64,000 nt of DNA from Alphaproteobacteria bacterium (GCA_026710105.1 JAPORR010000028.1:13633-77632), one strand, 5' to 3'. Counted from the stretch's first letter, positions 9,825 through 39,637 are shown. A program made the numbers and translations. Notes: generated from the sequence alone by a model not told the origin.

Positions 9825-11069
9825 ATGCCGACGCCGCGTCCCAATCTCTCCATCGACGCCGAACGCCTCCGGGCAGCGCTCCGCCGCTCCTCGGGCATCG
9901 GCGCGGGGCCTAGAGGCGGCTTGCGCCGGCTCGCGCTCTCGGACAGCGACAGGGAGATGCGCGACCAGTTCGTCGCGTGGTGCGAGGCCATCGGATGCCA
10001 GGTGGTGGTCGATACCGCAGGCAGCATCTTCGCCCGTCGCGCGGGCCGGGAGGATGACCTGCCGCCGGTCGTGATCGGCAGCCACCTCGACAGTCAGGCA
10101 TCGGGCGGGCGTTTCGACGGCGTGCTGGGGGTTCTGGCGGGACTGGAGATCCTGCGCACGCTTGACGACAACGGTATCATTACCAAGCGCCCTGTTGAGG
10201 TCGTGGACTGGACCAATGAGGAGGGGGCGCGCTTTGCGCCGCCCATGACGGCCTCGCGTGTGTTCGCCGGGCTCGCGACCGTCGAGTGGCTGCACGACCT
10301 CACAGATGATGACGGTCTGCGTTATGGCGATGAGCTCCGGCGGATCGGCTATCTGGGCGCGGCTCCGGTCGGTGGGCGCTCGCTTGATGCCTATTTCGAG
10401 CTGCATATCGAGCAAGATTCGCTCCTGGAGGAGCAGGGTGTGTCGGTCGGTGTGGTGACCGGCGGCTATTATAGCCATGCACTCAACTGCATCTTCCGCG
10501 GCGAGTGCGCTCATACGGGGCCGACCGAGATGAGGAAGCGCCGCAATGCGATGGTGGGGGCAGCCTATTTCCTGGCTGCCGTCAACGACATCGGCTGGGA
10601 CTACGAACCCGTCGGGCGCAGTTCAGCCTCGCGTATGCAGATCTGGCCGAACCGCTTCGGCATTCTGCCGGACTATACCGAGGTGACGGTCGACATGCGT
10701 CACACGAACCGGGCGGTCACCGACGAGATGGTGGAGAAGGCGCGCGCGGCGCTGACGCAAGCGGCGGCGCGGGCGCAGGTTGAGGCTGAGGTCACCGCCG
10801 AGTGGACCTTCGGCGATGAGGCGTTCGATCCCGAATGTAACAATTTGGTGCGCCAAGCGGCAAAGGCGCGCGGCACCTCTTGCATGGACATGCTTAGCAT
10901 CGCGGGCCATGACGCCTATTACATTTCACGCATCGCGCCGACGGCGCTGGTGTTCAGCCCTTGCATCGGCGGGATCACCCATAACGAGGCAGAGGACATT
11001 CCCTGGGAGCCGACCGTCGAGGCGGTGAATGTGCTGCTCGATGCCGTCCTCGCCCGCGCGGACAGGTAG
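9825..11069 (+). CDS. M20-family Zn-dependent hydrolase (allantoate amidohydrolase / N-carbamoyl-L-amino-acid hydrolase type)
   Basis: IGSHLDSQASGGRFDGVLGVLAGLE metal-binding block typical of AllC/AmaB amidohydrolases; 414 aa. Confidence 0.8.
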   Translation: MPTPRPNLSIDAERLRAALRRSSGIGAGPRGGLRRLALSDSDREMRDQFVAWCEAIGCQVVVDTAGSIFARRAGREDDLPPVVIGSHLDSQASGGRFDGVLGVLAGLEILRTLDDNGIITKRPVEVVDWTNEEGARFAPPMTASRVFAGLATVEWLHDLTDDDGLRYGDELRRIGYLGAAPVGGRSLDAYFELHIEQDSLLEEQGVSVGVVTGGYYSHALNCIFRGECAHTGPTEMRKRRNAMVGAAYFLAAVNDIGWDYEPVGRSSASRMQIWPNRFGILPDYTEVTVDMRHTNRAVTDEMVEKARAALTQAAARAQVEAEVTAEWTFGDEAFDPECNNLVRQAAKARGTSCMDMLSIAGHDAYYISRIAPTALVFSPCIGGITHNEAEDIPWEPTVEAVNVLLDAVLARADR

Positions 11070-11779: not shown

Positions 11780-12355
11780 TCAGAAAGTGGCGGCGCTCGG
11801 CGCGGCTAGCGGGGCGCGCAGGAAGGCGAGGGCGGTGCGGCCGTAACGGCGGCAGTCGATCAGTCCGGGCAGGTCTGGCAAGTCGTCATATGCGCTTTCG
11901 ACGACGACCAGCGCGCCCGGTTGCAGCCAGCCCTCGCGCCCGAGGGCGACCAGCGCCGGGACGGCCAAGCTCGCCCCCCAGGGCGGGTCCAGCCAGACAA
12001 TGTCATGGGCGCCTGGTGCCGGTCCTGGTGCGGCGGCGTCGCGGGCATGGATGGCGCCGGCGCGGCCAACATTGCGGCGGAGTAGGGCGAGCGCCGTCGG
12101 GTCCCGCTCAATGAAGCTGGCCCGGCCCGCGCCGCGTGAGAGCGCCTCCAGCCCGACCGCGCCCGTGCCGGCGAAGACATCGAGAAAGGCCGCCCCGGCG
12201 AGTGGCGGCCCGAGGCCGGCATGCAGAAGGCGGGCGAACCCTGCCTCGCGCACACGCCCGGTGGTTGGGCGCACGGCCCGGTCTGCCGTCGCGGCAAGCC
12301 GCCGCCCGCGCCAGCGCCCACCGACGATGCGGATCGCGGATCGGGTTCCAGCCAC
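11780..12355 (-). CDS. rsmD: 16S rRNA (guanine966-N2)-methyltransferase
   Basis: IRIVGGRWRGRRL and FLDVFAGTGAVGLEALSRGA motifs. The likely start is a GTG at 12355 preceded by GAGGAGG; the ATG at 12430 adds an atypical extension. Confidence 0.75.
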   Translation of the reverse strand: MAGTRSAIRIVGGRWRGRRLAATADRAVRPTTGRVREAGFARLLHAGLGPPLAGAAFLDVFAGTGAVGLEALSRGAGRASFIERDPTALALLRRNVGRAGAIHARDAAAPGPAPGAHDIVWLDPPWGASLAVPALVALGREGWLQPGALVVVESAYDDLPDLPGLIDCRRYGRTALAFLRAPLAAPSAATF

Positions 12356-12459
12356 CGGATAACGCCGCCTCCTCGATTGCCGGACAGCATTCGGTATTCT
12401 ACACTGAAACCGGCTCGGGGTGGCTCCCATGCGCCGCCCGCTCTCGAAGGAGTGACAAG

Positions 12460-13644
12460 ATGCGTAGGATCCTTATCGCTCTCGCTGCGGCAACGGTGAT
12501 GACCTCCGCAGCGGCTGCCGGAGATGAAATCAAGATCGGCGTGATGGTGGGTTTCACCGGGCCGATCGAGTCGCTGGCACCGAATATCGCTGCCGGCGCG
12601 GAGCTCGCCATCAAGGAGGTCAGCGACAGCAAGGCGCTGCTAAGTGGCGCCATGGTGACGCCGGTGCGCGGCGATACGACTTGCATCGACGCCGCGGCCG
12701 CAACCGCCGCGGCCGAGCGGTTGATTACCGCCGACCGCGTGAACGCCATCGTCGGTGGCGATTGCTCGGGCGTGACCACGGCCATGTTGCAAAATGTGGC
12801 TATGCCGAACGGCGTCGTCATGATTTCGCCGTCGGCCACCTCGCCGGCGCTCTCCACGCTGGATGACAACGGCCTGTTCTTCCGCACTTCGCCTTCGGAC
12901 GCGCGCCAGGGCCAGGTGATCGCCGAGGTGCTGAAGGAGCGCGGCGTGGGCACCGTCGCCATCACCTATACCAACAACGACTACGGCAAGGGACTCGCCG
13001 ACAGCATCGCCACCAATTTCAAGGCGGTGGGCGGTGCGGTGACCATCGAGGCCGCGCATGAGGACGGCAAGGGCGACTACGCGGCCGAAGTCGCCGCGCT
13101 CGCCGCCGCGGGCGGCGATGTGCTCGTTGTCGCCGGCTATCTCGACCAGGGTGGCAAAGGCATCATCCAGAGCGCGCTCGACACCGGCGCTTTCGACACT
13201 TTCCTGCTGCCGGACGGCATGATCGGCGACAGCTTGGTCGAGGCCATCGGCGCGGACCTGAACGGCTCCTTCGGGACGGTCCCGGGCACGGACAGCAAGG
13301 GCGCCGCCACCTTCGTCGACTTAGCCGCGGCCGCCGGCTTCAAGGCCGGCCCGTTCAACGGCGAGGCCTATGACGCCGCGGCGCTCATCCTGCTGGCTAT
13401 GCAGGCCGCCGGCTCCGCCGACAGCGGCAAGCTGAAGGACCATGTGATGGCGGTCGCCAATGCGCCGGGCGAGAAGATCCACCCGGGCGATCTCGGCAAG
13501 GCGCTCGAAATTATCGCCGCCGGCGGCGATGTGGACTATGTCGGCGCGTCTGCGGTCGAGCTGATCGGGGCGGGCGAGAGCGCCGGCAATTACCGCGAGA
13601 TCGCGATCGAGGACGGCAAGATCGTCACAGTTCGGTATCGCTGA
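12460..13644 (+). CDS. branched-chain amino acid ABC transporter substrate-binding protein (LivJ/LivK family)
   Basis: Signal peptide MRRILIALAAATVMTSAAAAG then KIGVMVGFTGP; the ATG at 12460 has an AGGAG SD. The track ORF start at 12136 is a spurious 5' extension over rsmD. Confidence 0.85.
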   Translation: MRRILIALAAATVMTSAAAAGDEIKIGVMVGFTGPIESLAPNIAAGAELAIKEVSDSKALLSGAMVTPVRGDTTCIDAAAATAAAERLITADRVNAIVGGDCSGVTTAMLQNVAMPNGVVMISPSATSPALSTLDDNGLFFRTSPSDARQGQVIAEVLKERGVGTVAITYTNNDYGKGLADSIATNFKAVGGAVTIEAAHEDGKGDYAAEVAALAAAGGDVLVVAGYLDQGGKGIIQSALDTGAFDTFLLPDGMIGDSLVEAIGADLNGSFGTVPGTDSKGAATFVDLAAAAGFKAGPFNGEAYDAAALILLAMQAAGSADSGKLKDHVMAVANAPGEKIHPGDLGKALEIIAAGGDVDYVGASAVELIGAGESAGNYREIAIEDGKIVTVRYR

Positions 13645-13679: not shown

Positions 13680-14453
13680 ATGATCCGTATCGCCGGCGTC
13701 TCGAAGCGATTCGGCGGCGTGGTGGCTGTTGACGGCGTGAACCTTGAGATCGCGGAGGGCTCGATCACGGGGTTGATCGGCCCGAACGGTGCCGGCAAGA
13801 CGACGCTTTTCAACCTGATCGCCGGCGCGCTCGCGCCGGACGCGGGACGGATATTCCTCGGCGGCGAGGAAATCACCGGCCTCCCGCCGCACGAATTATT
13901 CCATCGCGGCTTGCTCCGGACCTTCCAGATCGCGCATGAGTTCTCCTCGCTCACGCTCCGCGAGAACCTGATGACCACGCTCGCGTGCCAGACCGGGGAG
14001 AGCCTGCTGGGGGCGTGGCTCAAGCCGACCAAGGTCCGCGAGGAAGAGCGCACCAATCGGGAGAGGGCCGATGAGGTGATTGACTTTCTCGGCCTCGGCC
14101 CCGTCGCCGACGAGCGGGCGGGCAATCTTTCGGGCGGCCAGAAGAAGCTCCTGGAGCTCGGCCGGACGATGATGGTCGATGCCCGCATCGTGCTGCTGGA
14201 CGAGGTCGGCGCCGGCGTCAACCGCACGCTGCTCCGCCGGATAACCGAGTCCATCCTCCGTCTCAATCTCGAGCGCGGCTACACCTTCTGCATGATCGAG
14301 CACGACATGGAGTTCATCGCCCGGCTCTGCGACCCGGTGATCGTGATGGCGGAAGGCCGTGTGCTGACCGAAGGCCCCGCCGACCGGGTCATGGTGGACG
14401 AGGCCGTGATCGAAGCCTATCTCGGCCGCGGCGGACGGACGGCGGCCTCGTGA
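13680..14453 (+). CDS. livG: branched-chain amino acid ABC transporter ATP-binding protein
   Basis: GLIGPNGAGKTTLFN Walker A, LSGGQ signature, LivG-type C-terminus. Confidence 0.85.
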   Translation: MIRIAGVSKRFGGVVAVDGVNLEIAEGSITGLIGPNGAGKTTLFNLIAGALAPDAGRIFLGGEEITGLPPHELFHRGLLRTFQIAHEFSSLTLRENLMTTLACQTGESLLGAWLKPTKVREEERTNRERADEVIDFLGLGPVADERAGNLSGGQKKLLELGRTMMVDARIVLLDEVGAGVNRTLLRRITESILRLNLERGYTFCMIEHDMEFIARLCDPVIVMAEGRVLTEGPADRVMVDEAVIEAYLGRGGRTAAS

Positions 14454-28670: not shown

Positions 28671-30415
<1,745 letters not shown>

Positions 30416-30416
30416 T

Positions 30417-31475
30417 TCAGAGCGCCAGCTGCAACTGCGCGCCGGGTGGGCAGAAGCGGGTTTCGTCGAGGGCCCCGTAACCGCGTTCGAGGCCGAGCCG
30501 GCGGCAGGCGAGCGCAAACCGTTTCGCGATCGTCTCGGCATAGGGCCCCTCGCCCTTCATGCGCGTATGGAAGCCGCTCTTGTAGAGCAGGCCACCGCGC
30601 ATGTCGCGGACCCGCGAGAGCACCCGAGCCGCCCGGTCCGGCGCATGGACCTCGAGCCATTCGCGGAAGAGGTCCGCAATCTCCAGCGGTAGGCGCAGCA
30701 TGGTGTAGCCGGCGCTCACGGCTCCAACCTGGCGGGCCGCCTTCAGCACCGCCTCCAGCTCGTGGTCGTTCAGCGCCGGGATGATGGGCGCGAAATTGAC
30801 GGCAACCGGAATGCCGGCCTCCCGCAGTTCCGCCACCGCCTCCAACCGCCGCGCTGGCGTGGCGGCGCGTGGCTCCATGTGGCGCGCCAGCCGCCGGTCG
30901 AGGGTTGTCACCGACATAGTGACATGGGCGAGCCGGTCGCGGGCCATGTCCGCCAGCAGGTCCCGGTCGCGCAGCACGAGTGCGGACTTTGTGGTGATTG
31001 TGACCGGATGCCGACAGCGGGCGAGCACTTCGAGGATGCCGCGCATCACCTCATAGCGCGCCTCGATGGGCTGATAGGCGTCCGTATTGGTGCCGATGGC
31101 GAGCACGCGGCAGCGATAGCCAGGCCGCGCCAGCTCCTGTTCCAGGAGCGAGGGCGCGTTCGGCTTGGCGAACAGCCGGCTCTCGAAATCGAGCCCCGGC
31201 GAGAGCCCGAGCCAGGCATGGGACGGCCGCGCATAGCAATAGATGCAGCCATGCTCGCATCCTCTATAGGGGTTGATCGAGCGGTCGAAGCCGATGTCGG
31301 GCGAGTCGTTGCGGGTTATGGCATGGCGCGGTGCCTCTTCGGTGACGGTCGTGCGCAGCGGCGGCGGGTCGTCCTCCACCGTGCCCCAGCCGTCGTCGAA
31401 TGCCTCCGGCCGCGCACGCTCATAGCGCCCCGCCCGGTTGCTCGCCGCCCCGCGCCCTTTGCGGATCGTCTGCAT
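30417..31475 (-). CDS. radical SAM protein (PA0069-family)
   Basis: KGRGAASNRAGRYE N-terminus and a CEHGCIYCYA cysteine box. The start is the ATG at 31475 or 31505. Confidence 0.7.
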   Translation of the reverse strand: MQTIRKGRGAASNRAGRYERARPEAFDDGWGTVEDDPPPLRTTVTEEAPRHAITRNDSPDIGFDRSINPYRGCEHGCIYCYARPSHAWLGLSPGLDFESRLFAKPNAPSLLEQELARPGYRCRVLAIGTNTDAYQPIEARYEVMRGILEVLARCRHPVTITTKSALVLRDRDLLADMARDRLAHVTMSVTTLDRRLARHMEPRAATPARRLEAVAELREAGIPVAVNFAPIIPALNDHELEAVLKAARQVGAVSAGYTMLRLPLEIADLFREWLEVHAPDRAARVLSRVRDMRGGLLYKSGFHTRMKGEGPYAETIAKRFALACRRLGLERGYGALDETRFCPPGAQLQLAL

Positions 31476-31879
31476 GCGGTACTGATAACCCGGGAACAGG
31501 AACAAAGCAAGAATTTTATTCAGGGCAGCAGACCCAGGCCGGGTTTTGGTGGGGCAGTGGCGTCAGTGCAGCTGAAGCTGGCGGGCGGTCTCTTTTCGCG
31601 CGGCGCGGCAGCTGGCTCTTGACAGGGCCTGTTCGCCTTGTCAGCGGCGGTGCTGGCCGGGCCCTCTTTCGACGCCGAGGGGGTGCGGTAGGACTGCGCC
31701 GCCGCGAGCAGCAGAGCGGCCAGGGTCTTGGAGTCGATGTGTCTCAGGATGAGCATGGCGAAACCTTTGTATCGGAGCCGTCATCCCCAGCCGCGCCCAG
31801 GGTGTTTGTAGGGTGAGTCTTTCTTCCTTCCTCCGGGCCTTCCCACGCCGGGCACTGCCCCCGGACATCTACTGCGAGG

Positions 31880-33271
31880 CTAGAACTCAGCGGAGAGCAG
31901 CAGGGAGACGGTGCTGCCGCTCTTGCCGGTGCCGCAGATTGCGGACCAGGTATCTGCGTCTCCATTCTCCCCGCCTATTTTCTCATCTTCGCCGAGGTCG
32001 ACTTCCCAGCCGGCGCAACTGCCGGTGCCGTAGTCGTTGCGGCGAGCGTATTCGAGCGCGATGCCGATGCCCTCGACGAGCTCGGTGGAGAGGCCGAACA
32101 GCACTCGGCTCTCCGGCATCTCAAGGGCGAGGGCCTCGTGCGTCCGCTGATAGCCGAGGGCGACGCCGATTTCGCGCCCGCCCGCCTCGAAGGCATAGCC
32201 CATCTCGACGCCCCAGGCCGACGGCTCGGCCACACCAACGGATCCAAGATCGTCGTCTATGGGGTCCCCCAATAATGATCTATCCAAAATCGGATCTGTG
32301 AGGACAGGCTGTGTTTCGTAGGTGACTGAGCTCTCATTCGCAGTAAGATCCGCAACTGTCCAATCGACCCCATCCACCTTGTCGCGTGTGGTCATGTAGT
32401 GGCCGAGGAACGACAGGGGGCCGAAACTCAGGCCGCCGGAGACCGCCAAGCCGTCGATCTTCTTGGCGGTTTCGGGGGGCTCGCCCTCCACGAATCCTTC
32501 CGCCTCGCGAATGTCGCTGATCCAGCCAACGCCGAGCTCAACGCCCATGCCGCCGATCTCGGTGCCGAAACCGGCCTGCGCGCCGACCTTGTCGATGCGG
32601 TCCCGACCGTTGTAATCGGCATCGCCGTTGAAGGTGTAAGCCGAAGCGGAGAAGCCGGCTTCCGACTCGAAAGAAAGCATGAGCGCGTTCTTGACCGCCT
32701 CGCCGATCTCCAAAGCCATCGGGTCGGAGACGAGGTTGGTTTCGAAATCGGCGAAGGGCAGGCCCATCTTGCCGGCGCTGAACGATACGCCGGCGCCGGA
32801 ATCGATGGTGAAGAACGCATCGGCGACCTCCACCTTGTCTTCGTCGTCCTTTTCCAGCACCAGTTCGGCGCTGGCGTAATCGCCGATTCCGGCCGCGAGC
32901 GCGACCTCCACCGTGTCCGTCTCGTTGTTGCTGGTGGAGTTGCCCTCATACGGGCTGTCATGTGAGACCAGCACCTCCACGGCGCCGCCGATCTCCAGCC
33001 CGTCGGTCCAGCCGCCGGCGCCGGATTCCGCCACTTCTGCGCGGATGTCGGCGGCAGTCTGCTCTTGCACGGCCACCTTCGCCTGCAGCTTCGCGAGCGC
33101 CTGCTCCTTCTCTGCCATGGCGGCGTCGCGCTCGGCGAGGCGCTCCTCGAGCTGCTGGATGCGCCGCTCCAGCGCCTCGAACCGGGCGTCTGCGCCGCTC
33201 TGCGCCCAGGCGCTGCCTGGTAGCAAACAAGCAATCAGCGCGGCCGTCGCCAATAATCCGGGGAGTCTCAT
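31880..33271 (-). CDS. outer-membrane porin with N-terminal coiled-coil
   Basis: Signal peptide MRLPGLLATAALIACLLPGSAWA, ~70 aa of QQLEERLAERDAAMAEKEQALAKLQ coiled-coil, Gly/Asp-rich beta-strands, C-terminal ...LLSAEF aromatic terminus. Confidence 0.6.
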   Translation of the reverse strand: MRLPGLLATAALIACLLPGSAWAQSGADARFEALERRIQQLEERLAERDAAMAEKEQALAKLQAKVAVQEQTAADIRAEVAESGAGGWTDGLEIGGAVEVLVSHDSPYEGNSTSNNETDTVEVALAAGIGDYASAELVLEKDDEDKVEVADAFFTIDSGAGVSFSAGKMGLPFADFETNLVSDPMALEIGEAVKNALMLSFESEAGFSASAYTFNGDADYNGRDRIDKVGAQAGFGTEIGGMGVELGVGWISDIREAEGFVEGEPPETAKKIDGLAVSGGLSFGPLSFLGHYMTTRDKVDGVDWTVADLTANESSVTYETQPVLTDPILDRSLLGDPIDDDLGSVGVAEPSAWGVEMGYAFEAGGREIGVALGYQRTHEALALEMPESRVLFGLSTELVEGIGIALEYARRNDYGTGSCAGWEVDLGEDEKIGGENGDADTWSAICGTGKSGSTVSLLLSAEF

Positions 33272-33364
33272 GCGTGTCGTTCCTTTCGGTCGTATTTCCG
33301 TTCCGGCCTGCCCCGAATACGGTATGTCCGCGCAGCGACAGGTGACGGGCGTGCCGCGATACTA

Positions 33365-33400
33365 CTAGAGTGATGCACGGGCGGCGCTGCGCGGTGCACC
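33365..33400. repeat. GC-rich stem-loop (11-bp perfect stem TGCACGGGCGG / CCGCCCGTGCA, 14-nt loop) between the imelysin and porin genes
   Basis: Inverted repeat read directly from the sequence. Confidence 0.5.
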
Positions 33401-33460
33401 GCCCGTGCAGCGGCAGGGGAGGCTGGAGGAGCGTCTTCCCTGCCGTTTTCCGTTACCGGA

Positions 33461-34758
33461 TCACTGGAAGACCGCCTCGGGGTCGTCGAGGCTGTCCGAA
33501 CCCTCGAACTCGATGTTCACCAGCCCGAGCGCTCCAGCGGCCGCGGTGATCGCCCCGGTCTGGGTGGTGAGCCCGTCGATGGCGGCCTGCACAAGCGCAT
33601 TGCCGGCTGTATTGCCCTCGCCGATCATCTGGTCGTAGGCCTCACCGGCCTCCGCCGCCTTCACCATCTTAGTCATCGCCGCCATAGTGGCGTCGAGGCC
33701 CGCGCGCAGCGTCCTGTCCGCTTCCGGCGAGACCGCGGCGACGAGCGAGGACAGACTCGGGCCCGACAGCGTGCTGCCGTCGACCCGCCTGTATTCGCCG
33801 AGATAGATGTTCCTTATGCCGAGCGCATCATAGTAATGCGAGTTATGCGTGTTGTCGCTGAAGCAGTCATGCTCCTCTTCCGGATCGTGCAGCAGCAGGC
33901 CGAGCTTCATGCGCTCGCCGGCGAGTTCGCCGTAGGAGAGGCTGCCCATACCGGTGATGATGGTTGCCAAGCCTTCCGCAGCATCGCCACCCACCAGCGC
34001 CGTCGTGGCGGGGCCATGCGGCGTCCATTGCGCTGTCATCCAGGCGAGGTCATCCACCAGCAGGCCGGCGGCAACCTTGAGATAGACAGCGCGCCGGTCG
34101 CAATTGCCGCCGGTGCAGTTGGTCATGTCGAAATCCGTCGCCGCCCGCGCGCCCGCGCCCGGCCCGGTGCCGTTCAGGTCCTGGCCCCAGAGCAGGAATT
34201 CGATGGCGTGGTAGCCGGTGGCGACATTCGCCTCGACACCACCGAGTTCGTGCAGTCGGTCCGCTAGGAGCGCTGCGTCGATCATGCGGGCGTCGATCTG
34301 CTCGCCCGAGACGGTGAACATGGCGTTGGCGATGACATTGGCGGTATAGCCGGGGTTTGACCCGGACGAGTCGCCATAGCCGGCATCGACATAGTCGATC
34401 AGCCCCTCATCAAGTGGCCAAGCGTTGACCTTGCCTTCCCAATCGTCCACTAGGGCATTACCAAACCGATAGACCTCGCTCTGCTGGTAGGGTACGCGCG
34501 CGTCCAGCCAAGCCCCCTGGGCTGCCGCGAGCGTCTCCTCCGACGGGGCGGCGACCAGCCGGTTTATTGACGCCTGCAGGGCCTGGGCGGTGATGAGTGA
34601 GTCCTCATAGACAGCGTGAGCCAACGCTGCATAGTGCGAGAGCACCCGGCCTTCGGGTGCGCCGCGGGCCGTCGCAGCCTTCGTTGCGCCGCCGACCGCT
34701 AGGCCTGATCCCAGCAGACAGGCGCCGAAGGCCGCGGCCAGCATTCTGTGCTTCTTCA
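33461..34758 (-). CDS. imelysin-family protein (peptidase_M75 / IrpA-like periplasmic protein)
   Basis: Signal peptide MKKHRMLAAAFGACLL then a GYHAIEFLLWGQD imelysin block. Only the 3' 432 codons of the 846-aa track ORF are genuine. Confidence 0.75.
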
Positions 34759-34788
34759 TGGATGCGCTCCATTCGTCCAGATTGCGAA

Positions 34789-34807
34789 CGATAACGATTC
34801 GCATTAT
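34789..34807. promoter_or_regulatory. Fur-box-like 19-mer in the divergent promoter between the imelysin and DUF1111 genes
   Basis: GATAACGATTCGCATTATC matches the GATAATGATAATCATTATC Fur consensus at 15 of 19 positions and sits inside a GCGAA-N9-TTCGC inverted repeat. Confidence 0.4.
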
Positions 34808-34843
34808 CATCATAGCTGTCAACCCCGGAGGGGAGATTTTTCG

Positions 34844-36301
34844 ATGGCCGGGTTCAGGCATGGCGTCGTCGCGGCAGCGCTTGCCGCGCTCTGCGCCCCC
34901 GACATCGCGTTGGCTTCCGGCGATAGCGTAGACCGTGCAAGAATCGAGGCCGTGACACGGCCTGCGACCGATTTCACTGCCCCCGAGCGCTATGAAAGGC
35001 GGCCTGGCGGTGCGGCGACTTCCTTCGCCACGCCGAACCGCGACGCTTTTTCGCATCCCTCGGCAAACATGCCCTTCGAGCGCAAGCTCGATTTCGAGGT
35101 CGGCGACGGCGTCTTCGTCAAGATCTGGGTCTCCTCCCCGAGCTCGACCCGCTCGTCGGACGGGCTGGGGCCGCTGTTCAACGCGCGCTCCTGCCAGAGT
35201 TGCCATGTCAAGGACGGACGCGGGCGCCCGCCCGTGCCTGGCGACCCGGCGGTGTCGATGGTGTTCCGCCTGTCCGCCGGAACCGACGGCAGGGACCCGG
35301 ACCCCGTCTATGGAGGCCAGTTGCAGAACCGCTCCGTGCAGGGCGTGTCCGCCGAAGGCCGGATAACCGCCGCCTGGGAGGAGATTCCGGTAAGGCTGGC
35401 CGATGGCGGCTCGGCCTCCCTGCGCTGGCCCCGCTATGGCCTCGCCGACCTGCGCTACGGCCTGCCCGCCCCGGATGTGCGGCTGTCGCCGCGCACTGCC
35501 CCGCCGATGATCGGCGTCGGCCTGCTGGAGGCGGTGCCGGAAGCCGACATCCTCGCCCGCGCGGACCCGGACGACCGCGACAGCGACGGCATCTCGGGGC
35601 GCCCGAACCTCGTGTGGAGCGACGAGCATGGCAGGGTCATGCTGGGCCGCTTCGGCTGGAAGGCCGGGCAACCGACGCTCGTCCAGCAGGCGGCGGCGGC
35701 GTTTCGCGGCGATATCGGCATTTCGACGCCGCTCTATCCAACGCCCTGGGGCGACTGCACCGAAAGGCAGGCGGCCTGCCGCAACGCCCCTCACGGCGAT
35801 GACAATGCCGAGGGCGCCGAGGCGAGGCAGGTGCTGTTCGACCTGCTGGCCTTCTATACCCGTAACCTCGCCGTGCCGGCCCGGCGCGGCCCGGGCGACC
35901 CGCAGGTGCTGCGCGGCAAGCGCCTGTTCTACGAGTCCGGCTGCACGGCCTGCCACACGCCCAAATTCGTGACGGGTCGCGACTCCATCGGGCCGGAGCA
36001 ATCCTTCCAGCTAATCTGGCCCTATACCGACCTGCTGCTGCACGATATGGGCCCCGGACTGGCGGACAACCGGCCCGAAGGCGGCGCCACGGGCCGCGAA
36101 TGGCGTACCGCGCCGCTCTGGGGCATCGGGCTTACCGAAGCCGTGAACGGCCACAGCTTCTTCCTGCATGACGGCCGCGCGCGGGGCCTGCTGGAGGCCG
36201 TGCTCTGGCACGGCGGTGAGGCGGAGGCCGCGAAACAGGCGGTGGTAGGGATGACCGGGGACGAGCGGGACGCGTTGCTGGCGTTCCTGCGCTCGCTTTG
36301 A
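34844..36301 (+). CDS. DUF1111 di-haem cytochrome-c-peroxidase-like putative thiol oxidoreductase
   Basis: Two CxxCH motifs (CQSCHVKDG, CTACHTP) and signal peptide MAGFRHGVVAAALAALCAP. The ATG at 34844 has a GGAGGGGAG SD. Confidence 0.75.
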   Translation: MAGFRHGVVAAALAALCAPDIALASGDSVDRARIEAVTRPATDFTAPERYERRPGGAATSFATPNRDAFSHPSANMPFERKLDFEVGDGVFVKIWVSSPSSTRSSDGLGPLFNARSCQSCHVKDGRGRPPVPGDPAVSMVFRLSAGTDGRDPDPVYGGQLQNRSVQGVSAEGRITAAWEEIPVRLADGGSASLRWPRYGLADLRYGLPAPDVRLSPRTAPPMIGVGLLEAVPEADILARADPDDRDSDGISGRPNLVWSDEHGRVMLGRFGWKAGQPTLVQQAAAAFRGDIGISTPLYPTPWGDCTERQAACRNAPHGDDNAEGAEARQVLFDLLAFYTRNLAVPARRGPGDPQVLRGKRLFYESGCTACHTPKFVTGRDSIGPEQSFQLIWPYTDLLLHDMGPGLADNRPEGGATGREWRTAPLWGIGLTEAVNGHSFFLHDGRARGLLEAVLWHGGEAEAAKQAVVGMTGDERDALLAFLRSL

Positions 36302-36317
36302 GGAAAGGAAGCAGCCG

Positions 36318-37412
36318 ATGAGGCACGCCATCGCCTTGTTGACGCCGCTGGCCGCATTGCTCGCGCTGGCTGCGCCGGCCGCCGCTGGGCCGTCGGCGGA
36401 GGCTTTTGCAAGCGTCAACGCGGCACTCGCGGAAAACCATATACGCCCCCGTTACGAACGGCTGTCCGCTGCGGCGGAGGAGTTCGAGGCCGCCGTCGAA
36501 CCGCTTTGCGCCCGCCCGGACTCCTCGACGCTGAGCGGGGCCGAGGCCGGGTTCCAGTCCCTCATGGACGCCTGGATGAGCGCCGAGCACCTGCGTTTCG
36601 GGCCAGCCGAGTCGTTCATGCGCATGCACCGGTTCCATTTCTGGCCCGAGGCGCAAGGGAAGGTAGGCAAGGCGATTGCAAAGCGGCTGGCCGCAGAGGG
36701 TGCGGCTTCCACCGCACCCTTCCGCGACGCCAGCGCGGCGGTGCAGGGCCTGCTCGCCGCCGAGTTCCTGCTTTACGACCAGAACGCATTGGTCCCGGCG
36801 CCCGCCCCGGCGCCTGCCCAATGCTCACTGCTTTCCACGATCGCCGGGAATATGCGCGGGATGGCGACCGGGATGGCGTCCGACTGGTGGAGCGGGGCGG
36901 ACCCGTTCATCGCGCGCCTTGCCAGCCCCGGCCCGGAGAACCCGTATTTCGAGAGCCATGGCGAGGCGGCGCTGGCCTTCCTCAAGAGCCTCCATGACGG
37001 GCTGCAACGGATCGTGGATCTGAAAATAGCGCCGGTCATCGGCAAGGACGCCGGCAAAGTCCGCCCAAATCTGGCGGAATCGCGCCTAACCGGCCGGTCG
37101 CTCTGGAACATCGTCCTGAATCTGGAGGCGCTGCAGGAGCTCTATACGGGTGGGGCCGGGCCGGGCCTTGCGGCCTTGCTGCCGAAATCCGAGCACAAGC
37201 TGGAGAGGCTGCTTCGCAAAGGCTTCCGCGCGACGCTCGCGACGGCGGAGTCGATAGAAGGGCCGCTAGAATCCGCCGCCGCCGATCCTGCGCAACGCAA
37301 AACCGTCGAGAAGCTGCGGGTCCAGGCGCAGGCGCTCCGGCAGATCGTGCGGGACCGGCTGGCCAAGGCCCTCGACCTGCCACTTGGCTTCAATGCGCTC
37401 GATGGCGATTGA
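36318..37412 (+). CDS. imelysin-family protein (second copy)
   Basis: Signal peptide MRHAIALLTPLAALLALAAPAAAG, imelysin-like HxxE region, 364 aa. Confidence 0.7.
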   Translation: MRHAIALLTPLAALLALAAPAAAGPSAEAFASVNAALAENHIRPRYERLSAAAEEFEAAVEPLCARPDSSTLSGAEAGFQSLMDAWMSAEHLRFGPAESFMRMHRFHFWPEAQGKVGKAIAKRLAAEGAASTAPFRDASAAVQGLLAAEFLLYDQNALVPAPAPAPAQCSLLSTIAGNMRGMATGMASDWWSGADPFIARLASPGPENPYFESHGEAALAFLKSLHDGLQRIVDLKIAPVIGKDAGKVRPNLAESRLTGRSLWNIVLNLEALQELYTGGAGPGLAALLPKSEHKLERLLRKGFRATLATAESIEGPLESAAADPAQRKTVEKLRVQAQALRQIVRDRLAKALDLPLGFNALDGD

Positions 37413-38556
37413 CCGCCGGCAGGCGCTCCGGCTTCTCGCCAGCGGCCTCGGGGCATCGTTCTGGTCGAGGGGCGCGGGAGCGGGGCGGAGGAAGCACCGC
37501 TACCTTTCCGCCGGCGAGGCCGCCACGCCCGGCCGGTTTCGGGTCGCTGCGTTCTCGGAATCCGGCGAGGCGTTGTTCGATTGCGCGCTGCCGGCGCGTG
37601 GGCACGCCTTTGCCATAAGCCCGAACGGCCGCCTTGCTGTGCATTTTGCACGGCGCCCGGGTGAATTCGCGCTGGCGCTGGATATCGACCGGGGCACCGT
37701 CTCGCACAGCATCGAGCCCCCGCAGGACCGGCGTTTCCAGGGCCACGGCGTCTTCGATCGGTCCGGGCGGCTGCTTTACGCTACGGAGAATGACTTCGAG
37801 GCGGGCTGCGGCATCATCGGCATATATGACGCTCGGGACGGTTTCCGGCGGCTGGGCGAGCTCTCCTCCGGCGGCGTCGGCCCCCACGACATTCGGTTGC
37901 TGCCCGATGGACGGACGCTGGCCGTCGCCAATGGCGGCATCCACACCCATCCGGACTATCCGAGGGTGAAGCTCAACCTGCCGGCAATGCAGCCGTCGCT
38001 CTGCTTCATCGACCGCAAGATGGGCGCGTTGCGGCGGGAGCTCGGTCTCGGGGCTGGCCTGCGCCAGTTGAGTATTCGTCATCTCGCTGTTGGCGGGGAG
38101 GGCTGGATTGCGGTCGCCATGCAATATGAGGGACCGCGCGGAGACCGCGTGCCGCTTGTCGCGCTTTGCGGGGCCGATGGGCCGCTCCGCCCGCTGGAGG
38201 CACCGCCGTCGATCCTGCGCGCCATGAAGCAATATTGTGGTGATGTCTGTTTCGATCCGGCAGGCCGCTCCTTCGCCGTCTCCGCCCCTCGCGGCAATAT
38301 CGTCACCGTTTGGGACGGCGCAAACGGCAGGTTTCTTCATTCAGCCCGGCTGGCCGATTGCTGCGGCTTGGCGCCGGGAAGACGGCCCGGGGAGTTTCTG
38401 GTAAGCAGCGGACAGGATGGGATATTCCTGCTGGACGGGCACGCGCGCACGCTGCGGCGGCTTGCTGCTGGATTCCCGGATTCCCGCCGCTGGGATAACC
38501 ATCTGGCGACCACCGGATCGGAGACCTGCATGCCACAGCCGGGCTGCTGGATGTGA
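37402..38556 (+). CDS. DUF1513 domain protein (Tat-signal beta-propeller-like)
   Basis: Twin-arginine N-terminus MAIDRRQALRLLASGLGA; partner of the imelysin/DUF1111 genes in the conserved four-gene cluster. Confidence 0.65.
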   Translation: MAIDRRQALRLLASGLGASFWSRGAGAGRRKHRYLSAGEAATPGRFRVAAFSESGEALFDCALPARGHAFAISPNGRLAVHFARRPGEFALALDIDRGTVSHSIEPPQDRRFQGHGVFDRSGRLLYATENDFEAGCGIIGIYDARDGFRRLGELSSGGVGPHDIRLLPDGRTLAVANGGIHTHPDYPRVKLNLPAMQPSLCFIDRKMGALRRELGLGAGLRQLSIRHLAVGGEGWIAVAMQYEGPRGDRVPLVALCGADGPLRPLEAPPSILRAMKQYCGDVCFDPAGRSFAVSAPRGNIVTVWDGANGRFLHSARLADCCGLAPGRRPGEFLVSSGQDGIFLLDGHARTLRRLAAGFPDSRRWDNHLATTGSETCMPQPGCWM

Positions 38557-39326
38557 TCTTCCAGGGGCCAGGCCCCCGCATCCTGATCTTGGGCGGGACG
38601 GGAGAAGGGGCGTCGCTCGCGCGGGCGCTCGCGGGCCGCGCACAGGTCACGAGTTCGCTCGCAGGCCGCACCCGGCACCCGGCGGCGCTGGCGGGCGCGG
38701 TCAGGACCGGTGGCTTTGGCGGCCCCGGAGGGTTGGCGCGCTATCTCCGCGAACACCGCATCGAGAGGCTGGTCGATGCGACGCATCCCTTCGCCGCGCG
38801 TATCTCCGCCCATGCGCGCGAGGCAGCGGAACGGGTTGGCGTGCCTCGGCTCGCGGTCCTACGGCCGATGTGGCGGCACGAGCCGGCGGATCGCTGGATC
38901 TGGGTGGCTGATGCGGCGGACGCTGCCCGGGCGCTGCCCGGGCTGCCGGATGCGGTGTTCCTGGCGCTCGGCCCCGGCGGTCTCGAGGCCTTTATGGGCG
39001 TGCGCGGCCGGCGCTTCGTGCTGCGGCGCATCGAGCCCGGCCCCTTGCCGCTTGAGGGCGCGGCGGTGGTGCTGGCACGCGGGCCCTTCAAGCTCGCAGA
39101 CGAGCGACGGCTGTTCGAGGATTACGGCGTCGGCACGTTGGTGACGCGGGCTTCCGGTGGCGCGGCGACGGAAGCGAAGATTGTTGCGGCGCGTGAACGC
39201 GGGCTTCCGGTGGTGATGATCCGTCGCCCACCGCCGGAGCCAGGGCCGTGCGTGTCGAGCGTCGAAGCGGCGGCCGCGTGGGCGCTGTCAGGGGCGCTCA
39301 GCAGCGCCGACAGCGGATCTTCTTGA
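38553..39326 (+). CDS. cobK: precorrin-6A / cobalt-precorrin-6A reductase
   Basis: RILILGGTGEGASLARAL N-terminus and a CobK/CbiJ-like fold; 257 aa. Confidence 0.7.
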   Translation: MIFQGPGPRILILGGTGEGASLARALAGRAQVTSSLAGRTRHPAALAGAVRTGGFGGPGGLARYLREHRIERLVDATHPFAARISAHAREAAERVGVPRLAVLRPMWRHEPADRWIWVADAADAARALPGLPDAVFLALGPGGLEAFMGVRGRRFVLRRIEPGPLPLEGAAVVLARGPFKLADERRLFEDYGVGTLVTRASGGAATEAKIVAARERGLPVVMIRRPPPEPGPCVSSVEAAAAWALSGALSSADSGSS

Positions 39327-39483
39327 AGACAGTGTCACGGTCGCCGTCCGCGGCCAGCCAGTCCAGCAGACAGCGCAGCGCCTTGCTGCGGTCCGCCAAG
39401 CGATAGTCCTTCACCGCATCGTCGAGCAGTGTGAGCATGTCAGGGTTCAACTCCACCTCGACCTTTACCTTGTCGCCGGCCAT
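39298..39483 (-). CDS. small ribbon-helix-helix-like protein (hypothetical)
   Basis: MAGDKVKVEVELNPDMLTLLDDAVKDYRLADRSKALRCLLDWL has a beta-alpha-alpha pattern and a C-terminal CRRC. The ATG at 39483 has a GGAAAGAAGGAAAGG SD. Confidence 0.45.
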   Translation of the reverse strand: MAGDKVKVEVELNPDMLTLLDDAVKDYRLADRSKALRCLLDWLAADGDRDTVFKKIRCRRC

Positions 39484-39505
39484 CGCCTTTCCTTCTTTCC
39501 CCGCG

Positions 39506-39637
39506 CTAGAGCAGCGTTGCAGCCAGAATGACCAACAGGGCCACGACCCCACCGGTGGACCAGCCGAGGAACCGGCAGAAACCGGCCCAGATATTCTGGT
39601 GCCGCGCGTTTTCCGCCGCTGTCTTATAATCCGCCAT
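39506..39637 (-). CDS. aa3-type cytochrome c oxidase subunit IV-like small membrane protein (43 aa)
   Basis: MADYKTAAENARHQNIWAGFCRFLGWSTGGVVALLVILAATLL fits the bacterial CoxIV pattern (RHQ..WAGF..F..W followed by a TM helix). It is too short for the ORF track. Confidence 0.55.
   Translation of the reverse strand: MADYKTAAENARHQNIWAGFCRFLGWSTGGVVALLVILAATLL

Follow-up and report, generated by a model that had tools for sequence, protein, structure and literature searches.

A four-gene imelysin, DUF1111 and DUF1513 module linked to a coiled-coil LbtU-family porin in an uncultured alphaproteobacterium, with a putative role in iron capture

Gene content of the cluster

The DNA analysed here (the window) is a stretch of 64,000 nucleotides from an uncultured alphaproteobacterium (GCA_026710105.1, JAPORR010000028.1:13633-77632), and the subject of this report is a cluster at positions 31880-38556 that combines two imelysins, a DUF1111 di-haem cytochrome (DHOR) and a DUF1513 protein with an outer-membrane porin (Table 1). 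According to the open reading frame (ORF) calls, five genes fill this interval as two divergent units, and their boundaries agreed with the independent calls on two public contigs encoding an identical porin. The mechanical ORF of imelysin 1 extends to 36001, and the real start is at MKKHRML. The spacer between DHOR and imelysin 2 measures 16 nt, the start of DUF1513 (ATG at 37402) lies within the end of imelysin 2 (TGA at 37410-37412) so that these two genes share 11 nt, and a gap of 189 nt (33272-33460) lies between imelysin 1 and the porin. Export signals are present in each of the five products, with no inner-membrane protein among them.

The profile searches placed the module proteins far above the curated Pfam cutoffs. 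Imelysin 1 (E 1.6e-84, 284.3 bits) and imelysin 2 (E 2.5e-45, 155.7 bits) matched PF09375 (Peptidase_M75, cutoff 23.5), DHOR matched PF06537 (E 2.9e-94, 316.7 bits, cutoff 22), and DUF1513 matched PF07433 (E 7.5e-105, 350.8 bits, cutoff 27). The porin was not assigned to any Pfam family; it matched the NCBIfam model NF033652 (LbtU_sider_porin) with 197.7 bits (cutoff 90), residues 91-463 being aligned to model positions 2-327 of 327. An identical protein in a public NCBI record from an alphaproteobacterial metagenome-assembled genome (MAG) is named LbtU family siderophore porin. Judged by sequence, the porin is a member of the named LbtU family and not a generic porin.

An earlier note on the same DNA had described a cluster at these positions, with products belonging to Peptidase_M75, DUF1111 and DUF1513, and this description was borne out, as were the minus-strand imelysin followed by a porin ending in AEF, the two CxxCH motifs of DUF1111 and the twin-arginine signal of DUF1513. 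Two of its lengths were revised: the plus-strand junctions of 8-17 nt hold for the DHOR-imelysin 2 spacer and not for the overlap of imelysin 2 with DUF1513, and the coiled coil of ~70 residues in the porin is real and ~55 residues long. The note had also called the four genes a recognised, iron-linked module that is functionally an orphan, in agreement with the literature (PMC3143127; bioRxiv 10.1101/072470).

Table 1. Positions of the genes and other features of the cluster, counted from the first nucleotide of the window
Feature	Position	Strand	Description
78-aa ORF	31520-31756	(-)	Directly downstream of the porin; no Pfam match
Porin	31880-33271	(-)	463 aa; LbtU-family outer-membrane porin; signal peptide aa 1-23, coiled coil ~aa 27-83, acidic beta-barrel aa 91-463, C-terminus SAEF
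Barrel of the porin	31883-33001	(-)	69 D/E and 20 K/R, net charge -49
Periplasmic coiled-coil segment of the porin	33023-33193	(-)	aa 27-83, heptad a/d pattern
Two-hairpin element	33374-33445	(-)	Just 3' of the imelysin 1 stop codon, in the 189-nt spacer
Imelysin 1	33461-34759	(-)	432 aa; IcmP-type, Peptidase_M75
GxHxxE motif of imelysin 1	34199-34216	(-)	GYHAIE
Divergent promoter region	34760-34843		84 bp between the imelysin 1 and DHOR start codons
Sigma-70-like promoter	34782-34810		TTGCGA-17-TATCAT, facing the DHOR operon
Fur-box-like site	34790-34808		16/19 match to the classical Fur-box consensus
DHOR (DUF1111)	34844-36301	(+)	485 aa; di-haem c-type cytochrome, signal peptide
First haem c motif of DHOR	35192-35206	(+)	CQSCH, aa 117
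Second haem c motif of DHOR	35942-35956	(+)	CTACH, aa 367
Imelysin 2	36318-37412	(+)	364 aa; IPPA/PA4372-type, signal peptide
GxxxxE motif of imelysin 2	36747-36764	(+)	GLLAAE, degenerate, His lost
DUF1513	37402-38556	(+)	384 aa; twin-arginine signal
RR pair of DUF1513	37414-37419	(+)	Within the twin-arginine motif

Fur-regulated imelysin/DUF1111/imelysin/DUF1513 operons have been described as PA4370-PA4373 of Pseudomonas aeruginosa and VC1264-VC1267 of Vibrio cholerae (PMC3143127). The window has the same four families and the same subtypes, together with a Fur-box-like site. Unlike in PA4370-73, the IcmP-type imelysin is divergent from the other three genes and is followed by the LbtU-family porin.

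Imelysin 1 was aligned over nearly its whole mature length with the Pseudomonas IcmP chain of PDB entry 7XRX (E 4e-121, residues 38-422 against 9-395), and the motif block GYHAIEFLLWGQDLNGTGPGAG is identical in the two proteins. Imelysin 2 matched the imelysin-like protein of PDB entry 3PF0 (E 7e-9). The GxHxxE motif marks the ICMP and IrpA subfamilies and GxxxxE the IPPA subfamily (Xu et al., PMC3143127), so that imelysin 2 is assigned to the PA4372/IPPA subfamily because of its GxxxxE motif. The N-terminus of imelysin 1 is MKKHRMLAAAFGAC, with Cys14 preceded by F-G-A and a charged residue close by. By eye and with a PROSITE-type rule, it was not fitted by a canonical lipobox and looks like a signal-peptidase I (Sec) signal. 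In this respect imelysin 1 seems to differ from IcmP, and an IcmP-like anchoring in the outer membrane is doubtful because the canonical lipobox is apparently absent.

A sequence search of the PDB detected no solved structure related to DHOR, and in the literature its peroxidase or oxidoreductase activity is a matter of inference. Sequence support for DHOR as a close relative of MbnH or MauG acting on a protein substrate was not found.

The twin-arginine motif of DUF1513 is MAIDRRQALRLL. Its RR pair was at least 90% conserved in 41 homologues, the alignment of which also contained invariant His, Asp, Asn and Arg residues. With these 41 homologues, AlphaFold modelled DUF1513 as a soluble seven-bladed beta-propeller (pLDDT 85, pTM 0.85). 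In Foldseek, the model matched generic seven-bladed propellers, among them YbhE (1RI6) and the propeller subunits of two multi-haem enzymes, hydrazine synthase (5C2V_B) and quinohemoprotein amine dehydrogenase (1JJU_B); a sequence search of the PDB returned noise only. DUF1513 was earlier proposed as an outer membrane component, and in transposon fitness data it was cofit with its operon partners (Price et al., bioRxiv 10.1101/072470). The conserved twin-arginine signal and the confident model, which is a soluble propeller and not a membrane barrel, argue against the outer-membrane role. The protein looks like a periplasmic partner, possibly a cofactor-bearing one, and in the window lineage a separate porin fills the outer-membrane role.

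Porin family, module linkage and predicted regulation

The loci related to the porin were collected by scanning one genome per GTDB species with the porin alignment, which gave 80 loci. Module genes (imelysin or DHOR) adjoin the porin in 20 of them, and in 18 of these 20 the porin lies directly beside an IcmP-type imelysin. The module-linked porins fall into three separate clades of a neighbour-joining tree of the barrels, and the linkage spans two proteobacterial classes and several gene orders. Since the adjacency is kept through many rearrangements and in three clades, the porin is a real partner of the module and not a chance neighbour; the comparison of synteny and porin co-occurrence proposed in the earlier note thus showed a recurrent linkage. 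All carriers found so far are uncultured genomes.

The window's own layout, with DUF1513, imelysin 2 and DHOR divergent from imelysin 1 and the porin, was found in three loci (L007, L008, and L009). The order of the porin and imelysin 1 is swapped in four loci (L012, L016, L019, and L069). A reduced layout, consisting only of DHOR divergent from the porin and imelysin 1, was observed in five loci (L013, L014, L017, L024, and L026), where imelysin 2 and DUF1513 were absent within 10 kb, a hint at a working core made up of the porin, the IcmP-type imelysin and DHOR. Six Chromatiales-type MAGs (L028, L037, L043, L046, L063, and L066) have a co-directional order of porin, imelysin 1, an optional CCP_MauG gene, DHOR, imelysin 2 and DUF1513, and the remaining two loci (L032 and L083) are partial cases. 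True CCP_MauG genes occur as an extra gene in the Chromatiales-type loci only: a di-haem cytochrome c peroxidase gene of this family (E 2.2e-42) lies between imelysin 1 and DHOR in L037, L043, L046, L063 and L066, and in L028 it is divergent, upstream of the porin. Two close relatives of the porin (L010 and L011) are located away from any module; the match in L011 is split into two parts (10001-10981 and 14061-14336) ~3 kb apart, as if interrupted by an insertion.

A reverse sample consisted of 80 diverse metagenomic DUF1513 loci (37-55% identity), 53 of which had enough flank to establish the gene order. The canonical co-directional order was present in 53/53. A hidden Markov model (HMM) of the porin built from 101 sequences gave no matches at E up to 10 in the 2928 ORFs of the 80 loci, none of which had such a porin within 10 kb; the porin is accordingly not a component of the module in general. 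The divergent layout, like the link to the porin, is a lineage-specific variant. The earlier note had regarded them as defining the set; the partnership with the porin stands, and the defining role does not, as both features belong to particular lineages and are absent from the 80 DUF1513 loci. In two metagenomic loci (L106 and L113), imelysin 2 and DUF1513 were present and imelysin 1 and DHOR were undetected in ~9 kb upstream; these may be truncated or rearranged forms of the module.

The four-gene module, the porin family and Fur control are already known. The pairing of an imelysin with a porin was not mentioned in the titles or abstracts of the listed papers containing both words. At the level of searchable titles and abstracts, four points seem not to have been described before: a coiled-coil LbtU-type porin recurrently coupled with an IcmP-type imelysin, a module divided into two divergent units on either side of one Fur box, a triad reduced to porin, imelysin and DHOR, and the wider metal context of the porin family.

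The porin family comprises 1355 cluster representatives at E <=0.001. The coiled coil of the window porin has an unbroken 3-4 pattern over residues 31-80, with seven heptads and a core of F-I-L-M-L-V-A-V and L-L-R-K-L-Q-I. An AlphaFold model based on a shallow alignment (pLDDT 65, pTM 0.58) contained a single helix at residues 27-83 followed by ~16-18 strands, with the plug absent. The best PDB matches of the model in Foldseek were 16-strand general porins (OmpF, Omp32, and OprP) and also the stalked OmpM1, and a sequence search of the PDB gave coiled-coil noise only. The coiled coil is better conserved than the barrel, being nearly identical among homologues that are ~55% identical overall. 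The motif ERL..LE.RI..LE.R was found across the porin subfamily, and because it is also present in members not linked to the module, the predicted coiled coil can be regarded as a feature of the whole subfamily and not of this locus.

The strongly acidic composition of the barrel is shared by the family, with a median net charge of -44 (95 sequences), and fits the attraction of cations. An acidic loop, DLGEDEKIGGENGDAD, is flanked by Cys419 and Cys446, both of which are common to the closest homologues only. Veillonella OmpM1 (PDB 8BYM/8BYS) is likewise a porin-fold barrel, with 16 strands and a helical periplasmic stalk ahead of the barrel. OmpM carries an SLH domain that binds peptidoglycan-linked polyamines; unlike it, the window porin has no domain before the coil, and a tethering role is therefore not implied.

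The 84-bp divergent region contains the Fur-box-like site GATAACGATTCGCATTATC, which was the only site with a match of at least 14/19 within the 64-kb window; 20 shuffles yielded zero. It is overlapped by the sigma-70-like promoter. Sites of at least 14/19 were found at the equivalent promoter position in 14 of the 20 related loci, the best of them (18/19) in L007, and in the co-directional Chromatiales-type operons (L028, L046, and L063) the box is upstream of the porin as the first gene. Control by a Fur-family repressor is thus predicted from footprint-type evidence, and the iron link of the module is strengthened by the conservation of the site in the divergent region.

No Fur-like site of at least 11/19 was found in the spacer between imelysin 1 and the porin. 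This spacer contains the two-hairpin element, whose second stem consists of 14 GC-rich pairs with no U-tract behind it. The element shows ~90% nucleotide identity across four loci, and the remaining spacer is unconserved. RNAalifold gave -45 kcal/mol with one compensatory change (C-G to U-A). The hairpin core occurs once per locus and in the window clade only. An Rfam scan of 31000-39600 at E <=1 returned two chance-level matches only and no family for the element. Origin from a dispersed repeat of the repetitive extragenic palindromic (REP) type was ruled out, as the core is unique in the window and confined to orthologous positions. A possible role of the hairpin is to set the ratio of imelysin to porin, as a terminator, attenuator or stabiliser between the two cistrons.

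The neighbours of porin homologues without the module include ZnuA-type binding proteins (a cluster of 10 loci), CobW GTPases, P-type ATPases, cation diffusion facilitator (CDF) efflux proteins and DUF4198. Coiled-coil LbtU-type porins beside ZnuA, CobW, P-type ATPase, CDF, DUF4198 and NrdD genes were observed in Chromatiaceae and other genomes (L018, L022, L023, L030, L034, L035, L036, L060, L061, L072 and others). Because relatives of the porin stand beside zinc- or manganese-type systems, the name LbtU siderophore porin is suggested to be too narrow, and the family looks like one of metal-related, cation-attracting porins that are not strictly siderophore-specific. Bacterioferritin was encoded in or beside the module in 29 of the 80 DUF1513 loci (including L098, L099, L101, and L104), mostly between imelysin 1 and DHOR; the extra gene at this place in many canonical loci had been considered as a peroxidase, which was rejected since the gene encodes bacterioferritin. 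The window itself has no bacterioferritin gene. In L008, a bacterioferritin gene is located just downstream of the porin (12160-12636). Iron as the metal is supported both by the association with bacterioferritin and by the Fur regulation published for the module.

Proposed function and alternative explanations

On the reading that we consider probable, with moderate confidence, the cluster encodes an iron-capture system that works across the outer membrane and within the periplasm and is repressed by metal in the Fur manner. Both transcription units would answer to a single repressor site in the divergent region, and under iron scarcity the porin, both imelysins, DHOR and DUF1513 would be made. 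The acidic, TonB-independent LbtU-family porin would let iron pass the outer membrane as a cation or as a small chelate; it is probably trimeric like related porins, and its coiled-coil stalk of ~8 nm would hang into the periplasm. The IcmP-type imelysin, which is the neighbour of the porin in nearly every arrangement, would probably receive the metal at its conserved acidic GxHxxE site, the periplasmic di-haem DHOR would change the redox state of the iron, and the His-less imelysin 2 and the Tat-exported DUF1513 propeller would be accessory partners. By analogy with EfeB/EfeO of the EfeUOB system, the favoured redox direction would be the oxidation of Fe2+ to Fe3+ with H2O2 or O2 as the oxidant, the metal being trapped on the imelysin. 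The iron would then be handed to an inner-membrane transporter encoded elsewhere.

EfeB is a DyP-type haem enzyme, unlike the di-haem c-type DHOR of the window. The likeness to EfeUOB (EfeUOB/M) consists in a periplasmic protein of the M75/imelysin fold and a periplasmic haem enzyme in an iron-regulated unit (PMC3143127, PMC9174327). On the other hand, an EfeU/Ftr1 permease and a DyP-type EfeB were not found in the cluster, its +/-10 kb flanks or the scanned window ORFs, and the window set is without a cupredoxin domain and has an outer-membrane porin and the DUF1513 propeller instead.

Several points weigh against the iron-capture reading. The structure model of the porin is of medium confidence only, and 6 of the 20 module loci are without a site of at least 14/19. 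We infer the co-regulation of the porin in the window lineage, where the 189-nt spacer has a strong hairpin and no Fur box. Fur-like boxes serve the manganese regulator Mur in some alphaproteobacteria, and the metal could be manganese. LbtU itself imports an anionic ferric-polycarboxylate siderophore and not free cations. The host is known only as an uncultured alphaproteobacterial MAG. An iron-type inner-membrane permease was not found in the cluster, in its +/-10 kb flanks or among those window ORFs that have several predicted helices, one permease pair of which was named from context only; the transporters among the ORFs with several predicted membrane helices were Amt, EamA, AI-2E and this pair, a probable amino-acid ABC permease. 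The earlier note had spoken of a complete envelope-spanning set; this does not hold, since the five products are all exported ones and neither the cluster nor the predicted membrane proteins of the window yielded an iron-type inner-membrane transporter.

A bolder form of the iron-capture reading, which we hold to be speculative and unlikely to be right, is that the porin, the IcmP-type imelysin and DHOR work together as a minimal oxidative trap, independent of TonB, on the periplasmic face of the outer membrane. The trimeric stalk would dock the imelysin and the cytochrome under the acidic pore, and the entering Fe2+ would be oxidised at once and held as Fe3+. The LbtU family would really be metal-starvation cation porins paired with different periplasmic binders, namely imelysin for iron and ZnuA for zinc or manganese. 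If true, such a trap would move iron over the outer membrane in one direction only, with no coupling to energy.

The alternative that survives best, and is itself unlikely, is a siderophore route in which the porin would be an LbtU-like receptor for a ferric polycarboxylate chelate of the rhizoferrin or citrate type, DHOR a ferric-chelate reductase, and the imelysins and DUF1513 would handle the released Fe2+. LbtU of Legionella pneumophila, which has a paralogue LbtP, is the experimentally defined, Fur-regulated and TonB-independent outer-membrane receptor for ferric legiobactin/rhizoferrin (PMC11705809), and the window porin resembles it in scoring above the cutoff of the same NCBIfam barrel family, in the absence of a plug domain and in the Fur-type regulatory context; a di-haem cytochrome could also carry electrons either way. 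However, the window porin has an extra N-terminal coiled coil of ~55 residues outside the family model, and it is linked to imelysin and DHOR and not to siderophore synthesis or major facilitator superfamily (MFS) genes: a synthetase and an MFS exporter or importer of the LbtA/B/C type (lbtABC) were absent within +/-10 kb, nor were such genes noticed next to the porin at the other loci with the module. Moreover, members of the porin family, unlike LbtU, adjoin Zn/Mn-type systems (ZnuA, CobW, and CDF), and a barrel with a net charge of ~-49 is an unlikely conduit for an anionic chelate.

Quite unlikely, too, is a module devoted mainly to the removal of periplasmic H2O2, with DHOR acting like a cytochrome c peroxidase, the iron regulation serving for Fenton control only and the porin being a general channel. 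In Leptospira, the imelysin genes LruB and LIMLP_14180 and the cytochrome-c-domain ORF between them (annotated as a thiol peroxidase) were induced by H2O2 and by low iron (PMC7567364), a Dinoroseobacter DUF1111 protein was peroxide-induced in a RirA-dependent manner (PMC8007024), and the Chromatiales-type operons add a true CCP_MauG peroxidase gene. Peroxide induction fits EfeB-like iron oxidation as well and does not separate the two models, and peroxide defence leaves unexplained the two imelysins with a conserved acidic metal-type site, the bacterioferritin, the Fur box and the linkage to a metal-type porin.

It is very unlikely that a metal other than iron is acquired, whether manganese (under Mur control), zinc, copper or molybdate, or that the imelysin docks a secreted metal-binding protein, as reported for the IcmP-ModA pair of Pseudomonas aeruginosa. 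The Mur sites mentioned above and the ZnuA and CobW genes beside porin relatives would be in line with this. IcmP has been reported as a partner of the molybdate-binding ModA secreted by the T6SS (type VI secretion system; review PMC8602904). By contrast, T6SS, ModA and ZnuABC genes were absent within +/-10 kb, the anchoring known for IcmP is doubtful for imelysin 1, which apparently has no canonical lipobox, and the bacterioferritin association and the published gammaproteobacterial Fur regulation (PMC3143127) point to iron.

Strongly disfavoured, and the least probable of all, is an unrelated housekeeping porin that happens to lie beside the module, for which the hairpin-bearing spacer with no Fur box before the porin and the two close relatives away from modules (L010, and L011 with its interrupted-looking gene) could be cited, against an adjacency that recurs in 20 of 80 loci and holds through three clades, two classes and several gene orders and a porin that stands first in the co-directional Chromatiales-type operons, behind the Fur box.

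The imelysin/DUF1111/DUF1513 module is widespread, iron-regulated and important to the fitness of several bacteria. Its recurrent link to an acidic TonB-independent porin leads to testable ideas about the metal entry route and a minimal core of porin, IcmP-type imelysin and DHOR, along with the correction concerning DUF1513. This is an incremental lead for an orphan iron system, which leaves the general picture of bacterial iron uptake unchanged and would not surprise a specialist.

Genomic surroundings

The genes flanking the cluster are housekeeping ones (radical SAM, RNase HII, CcrM-like methylase, CobK, PurN, and PurM). The surroundings (28671-29927 (-) in the window and the flanks of L001, L002 and L005) contain a CcrM-like N6-adenine methyltransferase, RNase HII, radical SAM, RpoZ, RelA/SpoT, PurM and PurN. 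RpoZ and RelA/SpoT flank the module in the distant relative L005 too, which suggests that the cluster occupies an old chromosomal position and is not a mobile island. In the 78-aa ORF next to the porin, the first ~45 residues show weak conservation at the corresponding place in L003/L007, L008 and L011 (tblastn E 4e-12 to 6e-5), so that the ORF may encode a small protein or may be conserved as non-coding DNA.

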